Assembly (NCBI RefSeq): GCF_024223415.1
Contig: NZ_CP100501.1
Length of the DNA: 64,000 nucleotides
Source of the DNA: Escherichia coli
GTDB taxonomy: Bacteria; Pseudomonadota; Gammaproteobacteria; Enterobacterales; Enterobacteriaceae
Direction: 5' to 3' (one strand)
Shown here: positions 3,058-47,139 of the stretch, in pieces
Layout of the letters: the number at the start of each line of letters is the position of its first letter
How positions within the stretch are numbered: position 1 is the stretch's first letter
Translations under genes and position numbers: made by a program
The notes under the pieces: generated by a model
Database searches by the model: none
Told to the model about the DNA's origin: nothing
What the model saw: the letters and a program-made list of their open reading frames with translations, nothing else

Positions 3058-3159
3058 TGAAATACATGTTATCATTCTTCTGTTGGTGACTTTGCCGACT
3101 CAGATATATACTATCTGTATGTCGTGCATTATATATTAACGATACGCAGAGGTGTGTAT

Positions 3160-3825
3160 ATGGGCAGTGTTACAAAGAAACCGTCACCTGTTGTTATTAT
3201 TAAGAAAAAAAGACGAATTCTTTCTCATCAGGATGATGCCGTACAGGCAGTTCCTGATGATATAAAACCAGCGCCAGTAATGGAATTTAAAACCGACTCA
3301 TTACCTCCTGAAATACCAGCCACAGTGGCCGGTTCCCCGGAACAACAGAAAAAAACAGGACGTAAGAAGAAGAAAAAAAAGAAGAACAATAGATGGAATC
3401 ATGAGTTTATCCGACACAGTCTGGACTGTGTTAAAAAAACATTCCCTCAGTTACGGGCTGAAGAGGGGGGATATCATGCATTTAAAATAGGCATCTCAAA
3501 GGATGTCATGGCTTTTATTTCGGCCAGTCCTGAGTGTGGACTAACTGTAAAAGAATGGAATTGTGCTGTAAGGATGATTACTGGCGGTTACAAATATCTG
3601 CAGCGTATATCAGTCGCAGGTACTCCGCGTTATGGTCTGGATGGCAAAGTTCATGGAACTGTAACGGAGGAAGAAGCGCTGTATGCGCAGGCAAAACTTG
3701 AAAAACACACGCAGCGTTATAACGCCAGGATGAAAGAGACAGAAGATGCTCGTTGCAACCAACCATCGAAAACTGTTACACCGGACAGCAATTTGAAGGA
3801 CGCCTGCATTCATAACGGGGCATAA
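3160..3825 (+). CDS. FinO/ProQ-family RNA-binding protein with lysine-rich N-terminal region
   Basis: C-terminal half resembles remembered FinO (ITGGYKYLQRISVAG..GTVTEEEALYAQAKLEKHTQ vs FinO [35 protein letters not shown]); GAGG RBS before ATG 3160. Confidence 0.65.
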   Translation: MGSVTKKPSPVVIIKKKRRILSHQDDAVQAVPDDIKPAPVMEFKTDSLPPEIPATVAGSPEQQKKTGRKKKKKKKNNRWNHEFIRHSLDCVKKTFPQLRAEEGGYHAFKIGISKDVMAFISASPECGLTVKEWNCAVRMITGGYKYLQRISVAGTPRYGLDGKVHGTVTEEEALYAQAKLEKHTQRYNARMKETEDARCNQPSKTVTPDSNLKDACIHNGA

Positions 3826-3879
3826 TTATGTGAAATGCTGTCCCGCTATGGAATCAGAATTGAGTAACGACACGAGGTT

Positions 3880-4197
3880 TTGATGATTACTGTTATTATT
3901 TCTGAGGTGGATGGCTGGCGTGAATGGAAACACCGCGCCCGAACAAAGGATGCACAGACAGCCATCATCCGGGCTATGAATAAACATTTTCCACGATCTT
4001 ACAATTTTATCCCTGATGATATTGATAATGCACCTGTATTATTTGCAGCTGTAACACGTACACCGAACGTGAAAATAACCGGTCATATCTGGAAACCTAT
4101 GTGGAACAGGGGAATTTGCTGGAACGTCAAAGGTCCGCCAGTAATCATCACGCTCATCCAAGGGGCCGCTTGGAATTCGGAAAATAAACCACGTTAA
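3880..4197 (+). CDS. Hypothetical protein (105 aa)
   Basis: ORF only; low-GC context; no recognisable motif. Confidence 0.35.
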   Translation: MMITVIISEVDGWREWKHRARTKDAQTAIIRAMNKHFPRSYNFIPDDIDNAPVLFAAVTRTPNVKITGHIWKPMWNRGICWNVKGPPVIITLIQGAAWNSENKPR

Positions 4198-4202
4198 GAC
4201 TA

Positions 4203-4648
4203 TTTGGGGTTCTAAGCCGAAAACCTAGAAAATTCCGTAACCAAAGCCAGTAATTGACAGATTTGCATGACGTTGAATAGGTGACGGGTTATGTGACGAA
4301 ATCTGATGCAGAAATCGTTGTTTCAGTGACAGTCACTCAATCGGTCGTTTATGTGACAACCCATGCCGTTACTGGTCGCGGAAAAATCCAGGTTTCGGGG
4401 TTTGAGGCTCAGTGGAACAATAACCGCCGTTAAGCGGTCATTTTAAATAGCCAAAAATCAACCAGCCAATTTACATCGTGAATCTGCGTTCTTGGCTATC
4501 TGTTTTGGGGGGGCCAAGTTGGCTTTACTCATCCTGGCCGTTTGCGGAACAAACGACGTTGTTGATCTCAACAGATTGATTTACCTGTTATTGACCATTC
4601 AATTGAACCGCTTAACCGCCTTTTGAGTTCCACTACTCCCCAAACCCC
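4203..4648. mobile_element. Tn3-family terminal inverted-repeat-like motifs (miniature element or transposon-end relics)
   Basis: 4397-4437 GGGGTTTGAGGCTCAGTGGAAC..GTTAAGCGG and its inverted partner at 4608-4648 resemble the Tn3 38-bp IR; a third GGGG..AAAAC motif at 4203. Confidence 0.4.
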
Positions 4649-4849
4649 AAATAGCTGTCTAGCGCGAAAAATCACTGCCCGTAACGTATCATATGGCTGG
4701 TACGAATAAATTCTCACTTACTGCACCATAAACGTACACGTCAAAACCTTCCAAACATGCTTCAAAAATCAACAAATTCGCTGTATCGGAAATTTTGGCG
4801 TTTCCGGCGTACAACCCCGATTAGATATAAATGAATTAACGTGTGTGGT

Positions 4850-5326
4850 TTATTGGTCTCTGCCTTCTCCAGCAATGACGCAAGACTTTGACATACCATC
4901 AAAAAAATGATCGGCGAGCTCCAGAATTCGTGGATTATGAGTTGTAATAATAACGGTAGGGCAATGCTGCCGGATATAGGTAATGATCTTTATCGCGAGT
5001 TCTTCGCCAATAGAGGCCGTGGGTTCATCAAGTACGATAATCTTTTTCTTACGGGCTAGGGCGCGGGCTATGCATAATCGCTGGATCTCTCCACCACTCA
5101 AACCACTACCCAGAGGATTAATATCCCGGTCTAGGAAAGCAAGGAAATGTTCTCCGCAGTCCTCTTTAATTAACCCCAATGAATTCAGGATGCAAAACAG
5201 TTCATCATCGGGAAGAATGTCATCGGTTCCATACAGAATATTATCACGAATAGTTCCCTGCACCAGAACGGCTTTTTGAGGCACAACAGCAACGTCCTCC
5301 AGGATAGACGCACTCAACTCTGTGTT
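4850..5326 (-). pseudogene. 3' fragment of an ABC transporter ATP-binding protein gene, fused in frame to truncated IS2 insD
   Basis: C-terminal 160 aa of the 378-aa ORF carry ABC signature LSGGEIQR, Walker B IIVLDEP and H-loop ITTHN; N-terminal 220 aa are IS2 InsD. Confidence 0.7.
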
Positions 5327-6400
5327 CTTCGGTTCAAGCCCCAACATCCGGGCAAACTGCCGTGTTTCATTAGCCCGGTAGCATGAACCATTATCCGTCA
5401 GCCACTCTACTGGAGACGCCGGAAGCTCGTTGCCGAAGCGGCGTTCAACCGCTCCCAGCATGACGTCCTGTACTGTTTCACTGTCGAAGCCGCCCGTAGT
5501 GACCGCCCAGTACAGTGCCTCACGGTCACAGCAGTCCAGCGCGAACGTGACTCGCAGTTTTTCTCCGTTATCACAGCGGAACTCGAACCCGTCAGAGCAC
5601 CATCGTTGATTGCTTTCTTTCACGGCCACTTTGCCAGTATGTGCCCGCTTCGATGGCGGTACAGCGGTTTTTCGCTCAAGCAACAGCGCATTCTGGCGCA
5701 TGATCCGGTAAACACGTTTGGCATTGATCGCAGGCATACCATCAAGTTCGGCCTGTCTGCGAAGCAGCGCCCATACCCGACGATAACCATACGTGGGCAG
5801 CTCTCCGATAACATGGTGTATACGGAGAAGTACATCCATATTATCGGAGTGACGGCTGCGGCGACCATCTTTCCAGTCATCGGTTCGTCTGAGAATGACG
5901 TGCAACTGCGCACGCGACACCCGGAGACAACGGCTGACTAAGCTTACTCCCCATTCCCGGGCAATAAGGGCGCGTGCGCTATCCACTTTTTTGCACGCCC
6001 ATATTCAACGGCTTCTTTAAGGAGTTCATTTTCCATCGTTTTTTTGCCGAGCAGGCGCTGGAGTTCTTTAATCTGCTTCATGGCAGCAGCAAGTTCAGAG
6101 GCAGGAACGACCTGTTCTCCTGCGGCCACAGCAGTAAGACTTCCCTCCTGGTATTGCTTGCGCCAGAGAAATAGCTGGCTGGCTGCCACACCGTGTTGCC
6201 GGGCTACAAGGGAGACCGTCATTCCCGGTTCAAAACTCTGCTGAACAATAGCGATCTTTTCCTGTGTAGTACGCCGTCTGCGTTTCTCCGGTCCTAAGAC
6301 ATCAATCATCTGCTCTCCAATGACTAGTCTAAAAACTAGTATTAAGACTATCACTTATTTAAGTGATATTGGTTGTCTGGAGATTCAGGGGGCCAGTCTA
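5327..6400 (-). mobile_element. IS2 (IS3 family), truncated copy lacking the right end
   Basis: IRL TAGACTGGCCCCCTGAATCTCCAGACAACC (reverse complement ending at 6400); insC intact, insD broken after LGLEPK by comparison with the complete copy at 30173-33953. Confidence 0.85.
5944..6354 (-). CDS. insC: IS2 InsC (OrfA)
   Basis: 136-aa HTH protein, near-identical to the insC segment of the second IS2 copy (32801-33079). Confidence 0.85.
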
Positions 6401-6442
6401 GCAGATGTTCTTGACCCCTTATCTCCAGACAGGGATTGTATC

Positions 6443-7324
6443 TTAAGTTAACGTTACCCGCTGACGTCGATATTCTCGCGGAGAGCGATAACCCAACGCA
6501 CTGTGCGGATGGTTTTCATTGTAATGCTCGATCGCCACTGCAAGGTTATGCACTGCCGTTCTTACATTCGGTTTCGGCATGAACGCGATGTAGTCTTCCT
6601 TCATCGTTTTCACGAACCGTTCTGCCATTCCATTACTCTGAGGACTGCTGACTGCCGTCGTACAGGGCTCCAGATTCAGCTCTCTGGCGAACTGCCGTGT
6701 TTCATGCGCTCTGTACGCTGAATCGTTATCTGTCAGCCACTGGATCGACTGTTCCGGCACTTTATCGCCAAAGCGTTTTTCTATCGCGCCTAACATCACA
6801 TCCTGCACTGTCGATTTATCGTAACCTCCCGTACTGGCTGCCCAGTCGATAGCTTCACGATCGCAACAGTCCAGGGCGAACGTAACCCGGACTTTTTCGC
6901 CATCATCGCAACCGAACTCAAAGCCATTGGAACACCAACGCTGGTCGCTTTTATTAACCTCTACACGGCCTTTATGTGCCCGCTGAGGTCGTGATGGTTT
7001 GTCATGCAACAACAACAGGCTGTTTTCGCTCATTATCCGGTAAACGCGTTTTGCATTCACGAACGGCAGGCCTTCATTTCGGGACTGCCGTCTGGGTATC
7101 GCCCAGACACGGCGATACCCATATGTTGGCATATCGCCAATGATATCCAGGATGCGCGATAAGACTTCTGCATCCGCAGCCTCATCGCGTCTCTGACGCC
7201 GTTTATCTGTCTTGTTATCAGATGCCTTCATCCGTAATGTTAACTGCGCACGCGACACGCCCAGAACACGGCTTACCGGGGCTATTCCTTGTCCGAAGGT
7301 AACAAGGGCACATGCGCTATCCAT
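6443..7324 (-). CDS. IS3-family transposase OrfB (DDE integrase domain)
   Basis: 293 aa, about 65% identical by eye to IS2 InsD ([19 protein letters not shown]). Confidence 0.8.
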
Positions 7325-7710
7325 TTTCGCGATTGCGCGTACTCCACCGCTTCTTTGAGGAGCTCAACTTCCATTGTTTTCTTGCCCAGTAAACGCTGAA
7401 GCTGATTAATCTGCTTTATCGCAGCGGCCAGTTCAGAAGCAGGAACAACGTCTTCACCCGCAGCCACAGCAGTGAGACTTCCTTCCTGGTATTGTTTTTT
7501 CCACTTAAACAACAGGCTGGGCTGAATTCCATGCAAACGCGCCACGTGAGACACCGTCATGCCTGGCTCCATAGTCTGTTGAATAATTGCGATTTTTTCC
7601 TGAGGTGTTTTACGTTTACGCACCTCTTTTCCTAACAAAACGCCAGCCATCTCAAAATTAGAACTAGTGTTAGACATATATCCAAGCCTACCTCTTATTT
7701 TAAGATACAT
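7282..7710 (-). CDS. IS3-family transposase OrfA
   Basis: 142 aa, homologous to IS2 InsC; overlaps OrfB as expected for -1 frameshift expression. Confidence 0.8.
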
Positions 7711-8075
7711 CTACTGTCTGGTGTTTCAGGGGGCCAGCTCATATATCAATTAATCATTAGTTTAAAAGCTTGTTCAACTGCATACATCATTAGCGTTTAA
7801 GCCAGTGAACAGGAAGTTTACTGGCTTAATTACAGTAATATAGTGTATCGCTATGCTCACTGAGTCTTAGATCTCCACCGTCGGTCTAATATTCGCACTC
7901 CTGCTAACAACCGGTAATCAAATCGTCCTCCGGTATTGAAAGTTAATACACAAATCAGGATGATGGAGGCTCATACTGGTACAGCGCGACCACTTATGCA
8001 GGCGTCTCTGTCAGGTTTGTTGCCCGGATCACCCGCATCAGGGACAGGGCTGTTCAGTTATCCGCAGGAGAAAAT

Positions 8076-9086
8076 ATGTCACTCAAGGCTATCGCCGCCG
8101 AACTCGGGATCTCTGTCACCACAGTCAGCCGGGCGCTTGGCGGATTTTCGGACGTTTCCGCTTCGACCCGTGCACGTGTAGAAGCGGAAGCTCGGCGTCG
8201 TGGTTATCGCCCGAATACCCTGGCAAGACGTCTCAAAACCGGTAAAACCGATGCGGTCGGCCTGGTCTTCCCTGAACATGCTGTACTGTTCAGCAGTAGT
8301 GTGTTTGTGGATATGGTCAGTTGTATCAGCCGGGAACTGGCCCGCCATGATATTGACTTACTGCTGATAGCCGATGATGAACGGGCTGACAGCCACAGCT
8401 ATATGCGTCTGGTCGAAAGCCGCCGGGTTGATGCCCTTATCGTGGCGCACACGCTGGATAATGACCCGCGTCTTACACACCTGCAGGAGGCCGGTATTCC
8501 GTTTCTGGCACTCGGTCAGGTGCCGTCCGGTCTTCCCTGTGCCTGGTTTGACTTTGATAACCATGCAGGAACCTGGCAGGCCACACAGCACCTGATTGCC
8601 CTGGGCCATCAGCGAATTGCCCTGCTGAGTGAGGACAACTCCCGTACCTATGTCACTGCACGACGTCAGGGATGGCGCGATGCCCTGAGTGAACATGGTC
8701 TGCCTGAGACCTGGCTACGCCGGGTCTCTCCCACCCGACGCTCAGGTTTCCAGGCAGTGACTGAGTTAATGTCACTTCCGCTTCCCCCGACGGCCATTAT
8801 TACCGACAGTGACCTGATCGGTGATGGCGCGGCCATGTCGCTGCAGTTATCCGGTCATCTGTCCGGAGAGGATGCCGTCTCTCTTGTGGTTTATGATGGT
8901 CTGCCGCAGGACAGTATTATTGAACAGGATGTGGCTGCAGTTCTTCAGTCAACACGACATCGCGTCGGTCGTCAGGTTGCCGACATGATACGCCAGCTGG
9001 TCACGAATGTTTCACCTGAAATGCTACAAGTACTCTGGCAGCCGGAATTTCATCCTGGCAAGACAACGCTTGCTCCCTCCGCCTGA
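8076..9086 (+). CDS. rafR: LacI-family repressor of the raffinose operon
   Basis: N-terminal HTH (MSLKAIAAELGISVTTVSRAL) plus periplasmic-binding-like domain; located upstream of alpha-galactosidase and permease. Confidence 0.85.
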   Translation: MSLKAIAAELGISVTTVSRALGGFSDVSASTRARVEAEARRRGYRPNTLARRLKTGKTDAVGLVFPEHAVLFSSSVFVDMVSCISRELARHDIDLLLIADDERADSHSYMRLVESRRVDALIVAHTLDNDPRLTHLQEAGIPFLALGQVPSGLPCAWFDFDNHAGTWQATQHLIALGHQRIALLSEDNSRTYVTARRQGWRDALSEHGLPETWLRRVSPTRRSGFQAVTELMSLPLPPTAIITDSDLIGDGAAMSLQLSGHLSGEDAVSLVVYDGLPQDSIIEQDVAAVLQSTRHRVGRQVADMIRQLVTNVSPEMLQVLWQPEFHPGKTTLAPSA

Positions 9087-9105
9087 TTTTTAATCCCGCT
9101 CACAA

Positions 9106-9144
9106 ATCCGAATCGTTTCGGTTGCTATCCGAAACGATTCGGAT
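9106..9144. promoter_or_regulatory. Paired near-palindromic operator sites in the rafA promoter
   Basis: ATCCGAATCGTTTCGG (9106-9121) and its reverse complement CCGAAACGATTCGGAT (9129-9144) between rafR and rafA. Confidence 0.6.
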
Positions 9145-9179
9145 CAACAGTAAGGCATACCCGAAAACGGAGATGTCTT

Positions 9180-43206: not shown

Positions 43207-43396
43207 ATGTGTTCTTGCCCCCTTATTTCCAGACAGGGGTTGTATCTTAAGTTAATGTTACCCGCTGACGTCGATATTCTCGCGGAGAGCGATAACCCAA
43301 CGCACTGTGCGGATGGTTTTCATTGTAATGTTCGATCGCCACTGCAAGATTATGCAATGCCGTTCTTACATTCGGTTTCGGCATGAACGCGATGTA
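43207..43396. mobile_element. Fragment (about 190 bp) of the IS3-family element seen at 6411-7740
   Basis: About 95% identical to 6415-6600 (IS end plus orfB 3' end). Confidence 0.8.
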
Positions 43397-43451
43397 GTCT
43401 TCCTTGGGGTCCGCTTGGAAAACGGAAAATATCCCACGCTAAGACTATTTT

Positions 43452-45609: not shown

Positions 45610-46800
45610 TCAGGCCGGCACATACCTCAGCAGACTGATATCCCGCGCGTTTTTCTTCAGCCCTGATACATTCAGCCCCGCAAGGGCCCGGCGGTATACC
45701 ATCCGGCCGCCACACAGCACGCATTCGAACGGGTCACGACTCAGGAACTGTTTCACCATTTGTGCATAGCACACTTTCGCCACCGGTTCCGGTTTATCCA
45801 TCCCCAGAGCTCGGTACACCTGCGGCAGCTTCTCTCCACACCCCCGGTTGGCAAGGAACCCGAAGTACCTCACCATCTTAAAAAACTTCTCCGGGATGTG
45901 CTGTTTCATCCTCGCGACCAGCTCACGCTGCGTCAGCGTTTCCGTCGCTGTCTCTCCCGTTTTGTGGTCCAGGTAACGGAAGCTCAGGCTCGCCCCTCCG
46001 TTGTAATGTGCCAGCCGGGAAGCCGCTATTGGTGGCTTCTTCAGATAACGACCCAGGTAGCGTGCCGTATTCCGCCCGCCGGCCGTCTTCTTCGACATGT
46101 ACACATGCCAGTATTTTCCGCCGGCTTTCAGCACCAGGCTTCTCCACTGTGATTCCGTCGTGATATGTGACAACGACTCCGGCATCGCCATCCCCTCTGA
46201 CCACGCTTTCAGAAGCAACTGCCGTATATTCCACATCCACCGCGAACGCATTGCGTCTTTCAGGAAGCTCAGCTTTTTCCACTGACCGTGCTTATTCAGC
46301 CCCCCGCAGGTTACTGACACATGTACATGCGGATGCCAGTTGAGACGACGGCCATATGTGTGGATGGCGCAGAAGATACCGGGTTCCAGCCCCCGTTTTC
46401 GGGCGGCATACAGCAGCCAACGGTTGCTTTCGAACACCGGCCACAGCGTGTCCGGCAGGGTGAAGACCAGGTGTACCCAGTCGCAGTCAGGAAGACGATT
46501 CAGCTGTGTCGCTGTCCACAGGTCTGTGGCCTTTTTTCCGCAGGACGGGCAGGCACGGCTGCCACATGAGTTAGTGACGTATCTGACGTGGGGACAGTCA
46601 GGTTTATCGCAGTTGTATTCCTTCACGCCCAGTATCCGCGTGCCGCAGGCCAGCATTTTGGTGACAGCCTCAACCTCGATATCGCGCAGACCGCCCGCAT
46701 CCAGGAAGGACGTCCAGCACTGGTTGGCTGTGAACAGGCGTTTCAGCGGACGGGGCTGAAAATCACCACCACTTCGGGTCATCCATCCTGCACGCTCCAT
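45610..46800 (-). CDS. IS91-family rolling-circle (HUH, Y2) transposase; start uncertain
   Basis: Zinc-binding Cys cluster (CDKPDCPHVRYV..CGSRACPSCGKK), HUH motif HPHVHV, tyrosine motif YLGRYLKKPP. Confidence 0.8.
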   Translation of the reverse strand: MERAGWMTRSGGDFQPRPLKRLFTANQCWTSFLDAGGLRDIEVEAVTKMLACGTRILGVKEYNCDKPDCPHVRYVTNSCGSRACPSCGKKATDLWTATQLNRLPDCDWVHLVFTLPDTLWPVFESNRWLLYAARKRGLEPGIFCAIHTYGRRLNWHPHVHVSVTCGGLNKHGQWKKLSFLKDAMRSRWMWNIRQLLLKAWSEGMAMPESLSHITTESQWRSLVLKAGGKYWHVYMSKKTAGGRNTARYLGRYLKKPPIAASRLAHYNGGASLSFRYLDHKTGETATETLTQRELVARMKQHIPEKFFKMVRYFGFLANRGCGEKLPQVYRALGMDKPEPVAKVCYAQMVKQFLSRDPFECVLCGGRMVYRRALAGLNVSGLKKNARDISLLRYVPA

Positions 46801-47139
46801 CTGATAATGTTCTGACAGGTAAAAATAATATCCCGCATGATTTGTGTGCTCATGATTTCTGATAATATCAGATATGGTTTTATCATCAATGATGAAAATC
46901 ATATCTGATATGATTTTATGTGAATTGCTTAATTAGCATATCATTTGCCCGTTTCCCGCCGTGCAGATCCGGTTTCCGGCGAAGTCGGATCGACCTAATC
47001 TTTGTTTCTGATATGAACATCTCGGAGAGGTGTAAGCAATGGTATAAACGAAATGTATTATGTATCTGCATCACAGCATGCGGGCACATTTTGCGGCAGG
47101 ATATGAATCCCCCCGGAATAACTGGCAAAGGACAGATAA

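Follow-up and report, generated by a model that had tools for sequence, protein, structure and literature searches.

Structure of the chimeric reading frame

The window that we analyzed is a stretch of 64,000 nucleotides (64 kb) from Escherichia coli (NZ_CP100501.1). On its minus strand, at positions 4850 to 5986, lies a chimeric open reading frame of 378 amino acids in which residues 1 to 222 of IS2 InsD are fused in frame to residues 417 to 574 of an ABC exporter. According to the ORF finder, the start codon is GTG. An earlier note on this DNA had described a minus-strand frame of 378 residues that starts as IS2 InsD, and both the ORF finder and the NCBIfam model PRK09409 ("IS2 transposase TnpB"; 505 bits, profile positions 1 to 227 of 301) bear this out. 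The switch, which the note had placed after about 220 residues, proved to be exact: InsD runs to residue 222, and the exporter sequence that follows comprises its residues 417 to 574. Residue mapping shows that N221 and T222 of the chimera are common to InsD and the parent exporter.

Pfam domains follow the same division. In the IS2 half, HTH_21 is found at residues 50 to 103 and rve at residues 124 to 222 (E = 1.6e-18). In the other half, ABC_tran is found at residues 227 to 324 (E = 4.2e-11), with a score of 44 bits against a gathering cutoff of 25, so that the ABC portion passed the formal search on which the earlier note had staked its reading. In addition, residues 227 to 361 match ABC exporter models in NCBIfam, including CydD and LssB. 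Because the ABC_tran match covers only profile positions 56 to 137 of 137, the reading frame contains just the C-terminal part of a nucleotide-binding domain. This part has the signature, Walker B, and H-loop motifs that had been noted before, and a Q-loop as well. In the numbering of the parent protein, these are VPQ431 (Q-loop), LSGG492 (signature), IIVLDE512 (Walker B), and TTH544 (H-loop). Walker A is absent; in the parent, it reads SAPSGFGKST and sits within residues 1 to 416. Also missing is the entire transmembrane domain, with only parent residues 417 to 574 being present. Because it has neither Walker A nor a membrane domain, the fragment would be unable to bind ATP or to carry out transport.

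The IS2 part of the chimera has a GC content of 0.53 and the coding ABC remnant one of 0.45, compared with 0.52 for the whole window. The parent exporter gene (0.42) and the cluster to which it belongs (0.40) have lower values, in agreement with the low GC content that had been attributed to the ABC gene. A chance open reading frame is ruled out because both halves match real genes at 95 to 100% DNA identity.

In RefSeq, the annotation pipeline (PGAP) treats the two halves as adjoining pseudogenes. The first is an "IS3 family transposase" that is incomplete and missing its C-terminus, and the second is an "ATP-binding cassette domain-containing protein" that is incomplete and missing its N-terminus. 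In some records, PGAP calls an "ATP-binding cassette domain-containing protein" of 165 aa from an internal Met within the IS2 part. The scar differs from other IS-associated truncation pseudogenes of PGAP in that its fragments lie in one continuous frame and in that the join falls inside the insertion sequence, not at its terminus. In kind, it is nevertheless an ordinary object, and RefSeq had flagged its fragments as pseudogenes earlier. Promoter and terminator scans of positions 4300 to 6500 returned nothing above the shuffled expectation.

An argument can be made that the fusion has been domesticated. Under such a scenario, selection would preserve the DNA-binding and partial catalytic region of OrfAB together with the C-terminal ABC subdomain, and the fusion might, for instance, regulate IS2 or plasmid genes. 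The frame is unbroken and in phase, the upstream insA gene and frameshift site are intact, and the open reading frame is 99.5 to 100% identical across more than 100 plasmids. Yet recent descent alone yields such identity. Given how recently the copies diverged, near-complete conservation speaks neither for nor against selection, and the ABC-coding part, which is 100% identical to the parent gene, is too young to carry a signal. Furthermore, the fusion would combine a nucleotide-binding fragment without Walker A and a transposase without its catalytic Glu, one join in three would be in frame by chance, and PGAP labels both halves as pseudogenes. We consider domestication very unlikely, and the missing motifs point instead to a nonfunctional scar.

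The IS2 remnant

IS2-unique sequence occupies positions 5327 to 6400 on the minus strand and aligns to IS2A of E. coli K-12 with 95% DNA identity. As in IS2A, there is a left inverted repeat (TAGACTGGCCCCCTGAATCTCC...), whose outer base is at position 6400, along with insA, the A6G motif, and InsD residues 1 to 222 with both aspartates. The remnant extends from this repeat to approximately nucleotide 1074 of 1331. In contrast to IS2A, it is without the last ~252 bp of the element, its sequence ending at 5322 to 5327, and without the right inverted repeat and InsD residues 223 to 301, including E234. Only one right inverted repeat exists in the window; it ends at 33953 and is part of a different IS2 copy. 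The two retained aspartates are found in WCSDGFEF and WLTD198NGS. The glutamate E234 (motif NGIAESF, or NGIAE234SF with its number) would lie beyond the join at residue 222, 36 residues past D198. From general knowledge of the IS3 family, we take these aspartates and E234 to be the catalytic residues of a DD(35)E triad. Lacking both a right inverted repeat and the E234 of its triad, this copy of IS2 is immobile.

The other open reading frame of the element fared better. The insA gene (insC; orfA) is intact at positions 5944 to 6309 on the minus strand, with 120 of its 121 residues identical to those of K-12 InsA. Also intact is the A6G motif for −1 programmed frameshifting (AAAAAAG), at positions 5986 to 5992 on the minus strand. 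In IS2, orfB is normally expressed solely via this −1 frameshift. Given that insA and the motif are intact, the predicted product of normal IS2 expression is a 486-aa OrfAB'::ABC' fusion. Such a product is possibly translated, in which case it might have some DNA-binding or dominant-negative activity. The 121-aa InsA repressor is the only IS2 protein to survive intact at the scar.

Since IS2 here adjoins a disrupted gene, one might suppose that the element simply inserted into the ABC gene and inactivated it, with no deletion. However, the join lies 252 bp inside IS2, a right inverted repeat is missing, and the target is not duplicated. Moreover, neither the far side of IS2 nor any other part of the 64-kb window contains the first 1.25 kb of the gene. 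We regard a simple insertion as extremely improbable.

Six base pairs beyond the left end of the remnant, there is a complete IS2-group (IS3-family) element (6407 to 7741, minus strand), which takes the place of the flank found in most other scar-bearing plasmids. A second IS2 in the window, at 30173 to 33953, is interrupted by an IS66-family element. Here, the flank of the type seen in plasmid pSA186_2 (cytochrome b562 and the fdrA/arcC region) adjoins this second copy, which carries the same left flank as the scar IS2 of pSA186_2. The shared flank points to rearrangement by IS2 or another insertion sequence in plasmids of this lineage.

The recombination junction

We placed the junction by a three-way alignment of the window, K-12 IS2A, and the intact parent gene of plasmid pVR50B. 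It consists of a 5-bp microhomology at positions 5322 to 5326 (unstranded), which reads GTGTT on the plus strand and AACAC on the coding strand and which is common to IS2 (CCGAAGAACACGGCGG) and the parent gene (GGATTAACACAGAGTT). On the coding strand at the join, IS2 reads ...CTTGAACCGAAGAACACGGCGGTG..., the parent gene reads ...CCGGATTAACACAGAGTTGAGT..., and the window reads ...CTTGAACCGAAGAACACAGAGTTGAGT.... From the alignment of these three sequences, the crossover falls within the common AACAC. When the window's second IS2 was used for comparison, there was an apparent 1-bp ambiguity in the junction, which we rejected; that copy has AGC where IS2A has AAC.

The position of the junction bears on how it was formed. 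Because it lies inside insD at a 5-bp microhomology and not at an end of IS2, the join arose by illegitimate recombination and was not mediated by transposase. A deletion of adjacent DNA mediated by an IS end was likewise considered and ruled out, the junction being internal to IS2.

The parent exporter gene

The ABC portion of the chimera (4850 to 5326, minus strand) corresponds to the 3' fragment of a lasso-cluster ABC exporter gene, D, comprising codons 417 to 574 and the stop codon, and is 100% identical to pVR50B. It is followed by 201 bp of the native 3' flank of the parent gene (4649 to 4849, minus strand), with two SNPs relative to pVR50B. The parent-derived block is thus 678 bp in length (4649 to 5326) and is 99.7% identical to intact genes on other plasmids. 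In plasmids such as pVR50B and CP077326.1, it matches the 3' end and the 201-bp downstream flank of a 574-aa gene annotated as "ABC transporter ATP-binding protein/permease." Homology to the parent breaks off sharply at both ends of the block.

In a BLAST search of the whole 64-kb window, no part of the lasso cluster was found beyond the 678-bp block. For this reason, we rejected an inversion in place of a deletion, as the missing part of the cluster is nowhere in the window. The view put forward earlier, that a deletion joined IS2 to a once-complete exporter gene, holds up when widened to a deletion or a replacement: the 574-aa gene is intact elsewhere, and the rest of it is absent from the window. 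Further along, the window at 46779 to 46979 and 51056 to 51784 matches the region between the cluster and RepFIB in the parent plasmids, with order and orientation kept. Because of these matches, it appears that the scar occupies the former site of the cluster on a shared backbone.

The scar-bearing plasmids are of the ColV/APEC type and come from avian and extraintestinal E. coli, a setting in which the ABC fragment might derive from one of the known ColV-plasmid exporters encoded by cvaB, iroC, or etsB and not from a lasso cluster. However, the fragment and its 201-bp flank are 99.7 to 100% identical to the 574-aa lasso-cluster gene. In at least 23 plasmids, that gene is translationally coupled to lasso gene B. 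In addition, the 574-aa parent exporter contains no C39 peptidase domain. An origin in cvaB, iroC, or etsB therefore has very little probability.

A lasso peptide cluster outside the window

The earlier note had left the exporter with an unknown cargo and had called for a database check for the intact parent and its neighbors. Both were found, and the parent turned out to be D of a lasso cluster. In NZ_CP146683.1 (record coordinates 76023 to 80134), D closes a run of four translationally coupled genes that all point the same way, in the order A-C-B-D.

Gene A is a 62-aa open reading frame made up of MKKQSKEVKTSGSEHREIMIEIDASKSTN followed by GTGGGSIIEGSYTVYRCDGGSVPSRPFGPPFCP. On inspection, carried out without a profile, this precursor (...ASKSTN/GTGGGSIIE9G..., where the slash precedes residue 1) has a Thr at position −2, Gly1, Glu9, and two Cys residues, the first three of these features forming the canonical signature of lasso precursors. 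The predicted core of 33 aa, GTGGGSIIEGSYTVYRCDGGSVPSRPFGPPFCP, would have a Gly1-Glu9 ring and one disulfide. A mature lasso product of this core, with the disulfide formed and one H2O lost, would have a monoisotopic mass of 3296.50 Da, or 3298.52 Da if reduced.

Gene C encodes a 462-aa "asparagine synthase-related protein." It matches PF00733 (Asn_synthase) with 26.8 bits (cutoff, 21) over profile positions 22 to 333 of 354, and its score of 57.9 bits against the macrolactam cyclase model NF033561 is under the subfamily cutoff of 300. Gene B encodes a 227-aa "lasso peptide biosynthesis B2 protein" with 82.4 bits against NF033537 (lasso_biosyn_B2; cutoff, 33). As a transglutaminase-like leader peptidase, it also matches PF13471 (60.3 bits; cutoff, 26). 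Residues 1 to 100 of B had no Pfam match even at E < 5, including to leader-recognition domains (RRE or PqqD-like, B1). In the microcin J25 system, McjB is a fused protein with an RRE; by analogy, the N-terminal ~100 aa of B could be a divergent RRE.

Comparison with other species suggests that the cluster has been maintained by selection. On a plasmid of Salmonella salamae, the cluster is 87% identical to that of E. coli, and its precursor is identical at 57 of 62 positions, with the ring, both Cys residues, and the TN/G...E9 pattern kept. A gene-by-gene comparison of the E. coli and Salmonella clusters gave dN/dS values of 0.12 (A), 0.18 (B), and 0.16 (C), the last computed on a protein-guided alignment. 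From these values of 0.12 to 0.18, we conclude that the cluster is under purifying selection. Beyond E. coli and Salmonella, the closest homologue of B is found in Pantoea agglomerans, with 40% identity and the same C-B-D arrangement. Upstream of C-B-D in that species is a 54-aa open reading frame (...ASVATN/GNGSGSLVEGRRRVYRCSSSSGIGFSVC) that keeps TN before G at the same boundary, E9, VYRC, and the C-terminal Cys. Some copies that might be counted as intact show decay; specifically, pVR50B has a frameshift in C, and the Salmonella plasmid has one in D.

The gene content of the cluster and the features of its precursor give good support to a lasso peptide as the probable cargo of the parent exporter. 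By analogy with McjD for microcin J25, D would serve as the exporter and immunity pump of the cluster.

Comparison with known lasso systems

In the microcin J25 cluster, mcjABCD, export and self-immunity are provided by the ABC transporter McjD (PDB 4PL0). The parent protein resembles it in role, as judged by context. It is a 574-aa half-transporter with an N-terminal membrane domain and a C-terminal nucleotide-binding domain, and its gene is the last in an enterobacterial plasmid lasso operon, right after B. A more specific kinship of D with McjD was rejected, since the membrane domain of D (residues 1 to 340) had no match to McjD at E < 1 when searched against all PDB chains. In the PDB, this domain is closest to Atm1-type exporters, and McjD is not among the best 60 matches of the whole D protein. 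The clusters also differ in their arrangement. All four parent genes lie on one strand in the order A-C-B-D; in the microcin J25 cluster, mcjA runs in the opposite direction to mcjBCD.

The parent cluster shares with the capistruin-, klebsidin-, and citrocin-type clusters of Proteobacteria a Thr at position −2, Gly1, an acidic residue at core position 9, a B2 protein, a C protein, and a D exporter. It differs from enterobacterial lasso peptides in its predicted core, which at 33 aa with two conserved Cys residues is much longer. The enterobacterial lasso peptides that target RNA polymerase are ~19 to 21 aa in length. Furthermore, no relative outside E. coli and Salmonella exceeds 40% identity to the parent B protein. 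To our knowledge, E. coli has been credited with very few lasso peptides, namely, microcin J25 and the related microcin Y. We found no papers on the scar or on the parent cluster in the searchable literature, which omits most subscription journals.

Prevalence and hosts

In PLSDB, the whole remnant and IS2 stretch occurs in at least 71 plasmids. The ABC fragment occurs in 97 plasmids, and at least 80% of the 4.5-kb cluster is present in 23. Every remnant-bearing record listed has an identical 678-bp block. We also searched 5,426 complete E. coli genomes with two 200-bp probes. The one spanning the junction was found whole in 105 genomes, and the one spanning the same point of the unbroken D gene was found whole in 25. 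All D-gene DNA in these genomes is plasmid borne.

These counts also speak to the quality of the sequence. Copies of insertion sequences are common sites of misassembly, and IS2 reads could in principle have been joined to an unrelated contig. Yet the identical junction recurs in 105 complete genomes that were assembled independently, which leaves an assembly artifact with a negligible probability, the smallest that we assign to any alternative.

The scar is carried by plasmids of 150 to 290 kb, of the IncFIB/FIC types and of the ColV/APEC type, in hosts that are mostly poultry isolates and, in some cases, human extraintestinal isolates. Strains with the scar include APEC O2-211 and IMT5155. 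About 0.5% of complete E. coli genomes have the intact cluster, which resides on plasmids of ~40 to 130 kb with IncF (FIA/FIB/FIC) or IncK2/Z replicons.

Origin and implications of the scar

The scar was very probably created by a single illegitimate recombination at a microhomology that connected an internal site of IS2 with one of D, the result being a nonfunctional fusion that is still in frame. The starting point would have been an IncF-type plasmid with a complete lasso operon in the order A, C, B, D and with IS2 upstream in the same orientation. Recombination at AACAC would then have joined IS2 nucleotide ~1079 (InsD codon 222) to D codon 417. Lost in the process would have been the right end of IS2, all of A, C, and B, and D up to codon 416. 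That the join is in frame would be a matter of luck, with a 1-in-3 chance, and as a consequence insD would read through to the stop codon of D. The plasmid would have lost lasso peptide production together with exporter-based immunity, and the scar would then have spread with ColV-type and APEC-type plasmids.

We infer one event because the 678-bp block and the junction are identical in every copy examined. The expected intermediate, a full-length IS2 beside an intact cluster, was not seen among the 23 plasmids with a full cluster, a set that is not exhaustive. Because no intermediate plasmid was found, we infer from the end product both how large the deletion was and in what order the events took place. 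The genes may also have been lost through replacement during recombination between plasmids instead of through a simple deletion.

On the broader question, we see about an even chance that the remnant is the fossil of an uncharacterized plasmid lasso system of the class I microcin-like kind and that one IS2-linked event deprived the ColV/APEC-type backbone of production as well as immunity. The scar itself is of little weight, and the identification of the lost cargo is of more value. If true, this identification would add a second, unrelated, and widespread lasso cluster to the plasmids of E. coli, one with a long core and a disulfide that is worth testing for expression and activity. It would also raise a question for plasmid ecology, that is, what the loss of a lasso system means in avian-pathogenic plasmid lineages. 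As an exact clonal marker, with one junction and one 678-bp block, the scar defines a large group of ColV/APEC-type plasmids. Furthermore, it ties their backbone to plasmids that still carry the intact cluster near RepFIB.

A miniature element at the other boundary

The other boundary of the ABC remnant (4648/4649), 201 bp past the stop codon, is formed by a miniature element. This element is 252 bp long (4397 to 4648; unstranded) and has 38-bp terminal inverted repeats (GGGGTTTG...TGGAAC...GTTAAG), with GGGGTTTGAGGCTCAGTGGAACAATAACCGCCGTTAAG and GGGGTTTGGGGAGTAGTGGAACTCAAAAGGCGGTTAAG at its ends. From the known GGGG...TAAG consensus, we take these ends to be 38-bp repeats of the Tn3 family. 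There is no target-site duplication around the element (GTTTC versus AAATA), and because its two flanks differ, it did not arrive by a simple insertion. This boundary, along with IS2 left flanks that differ among plasmids, indicates that further rearrangements have occurred. Full-length copies of the miniature element are present in 141 plasmids from several genera, and it is annotated in none of them.

IS2 copies and their neighbors

Besides the remnant in the scar, which is the chimeric reading frame that joins IS2 InsD to the end of a lasso-peptide exporter, the window carries a second IS2 (30173-33953, plus strand) that has kept both of its ends and is 96% identical to the remnant. This copy is interrupted at 30281-32722 by an IS66-family element, which is flanked by an 8-bp target duplication (GTCTTAGG). 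The left flank of the second IS2 (GCAGAT/TATGGTGCGC...) matches that of the scar's IS2 in pSA186_2, another plasmid carrying the scar, and no 5-bp IS2 target duplication was found around 30173-33953. The shared flank and the missing duplication suggest that IS2 copies have recombined with each other in the plasmid lineage of the window. The second IS2 is directly followed, past its right end, by an open reading frame of 1165 amino acids (34207-37704, plus strand), which has the look of an autotransporter, with N-terminal glycine-rich repeats and a C-terminal beta-barrel-like region.

Only 6 bp separate the left end of the remnant from the right end of a complete IS2-group element of the IS3 family (6407-7741, minus strand), and the two are arranged head to tail. 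This element, whose nucleotide identity to IS2 is 68%, contains InsC-like (7282-7710) and InsD-like (6443-7324) reading frames, and part of a second copy lies at about 43210-43405. Directly past the complete element is a raffinose-utilization-type block (8076-17778) with a LacI-type regulator, an alpha-galactosidase, an MFS transporter, a GH32 hydrolase, and a carbohydrate porin; the block is 99.8% identical to pLH10-b-1-A, a plasmid of poultry E. coli.

The exporter remnant is bordered by a miniature element of 252 bp (4397-4648). Its terminal inverted repeats are 38 bp long and have the form of those in the Tn3 family, and no target duplication flanks it. In PLSDB, 141 plasmids, from hosts that include E. 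coli, Salmonella, and Enterobacter, carry the element at full length (76 to 100% identity), and it is annotated in none of them. It looks like a nonautonomous Tn3-derived element. Upstream of it is a ProQ/FinO-family gene (3124-3825, plus strand; PF04352, E = 5.5e-13); pMS1718-3 has a ProQ/FinO-family gene as well, just downstream of its intact exporter gene.

The intact cluster and its decay

The A-C-B-D lasso-peptide cluster is intact in another record, NZ_CP146683.1 (record positions 76023-80134; 3202-7313 in the extract analyzed), with a predicted precursor core of 33 amino acids including two cysteines and a predicted mature mass of 3296.50 Da. Against its Salmonella salamae homolog, dN/dS is 0.12 to 0.18. 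A relative is present in Pantoea agglomerans, and our search of literature readable without subscription found no published description of the cluster. Some clusters that are otherwise complete are frameshifted, either in the cyclase gene (pVR50B, 12409-13904 in the extract analyzed) or in the exporter gene (S. salamae plasmid CP053317.1, 5968-7679 in the extract analyzed). In several lineages the cluster is thus decaying through routes separate from the IS2 scar.
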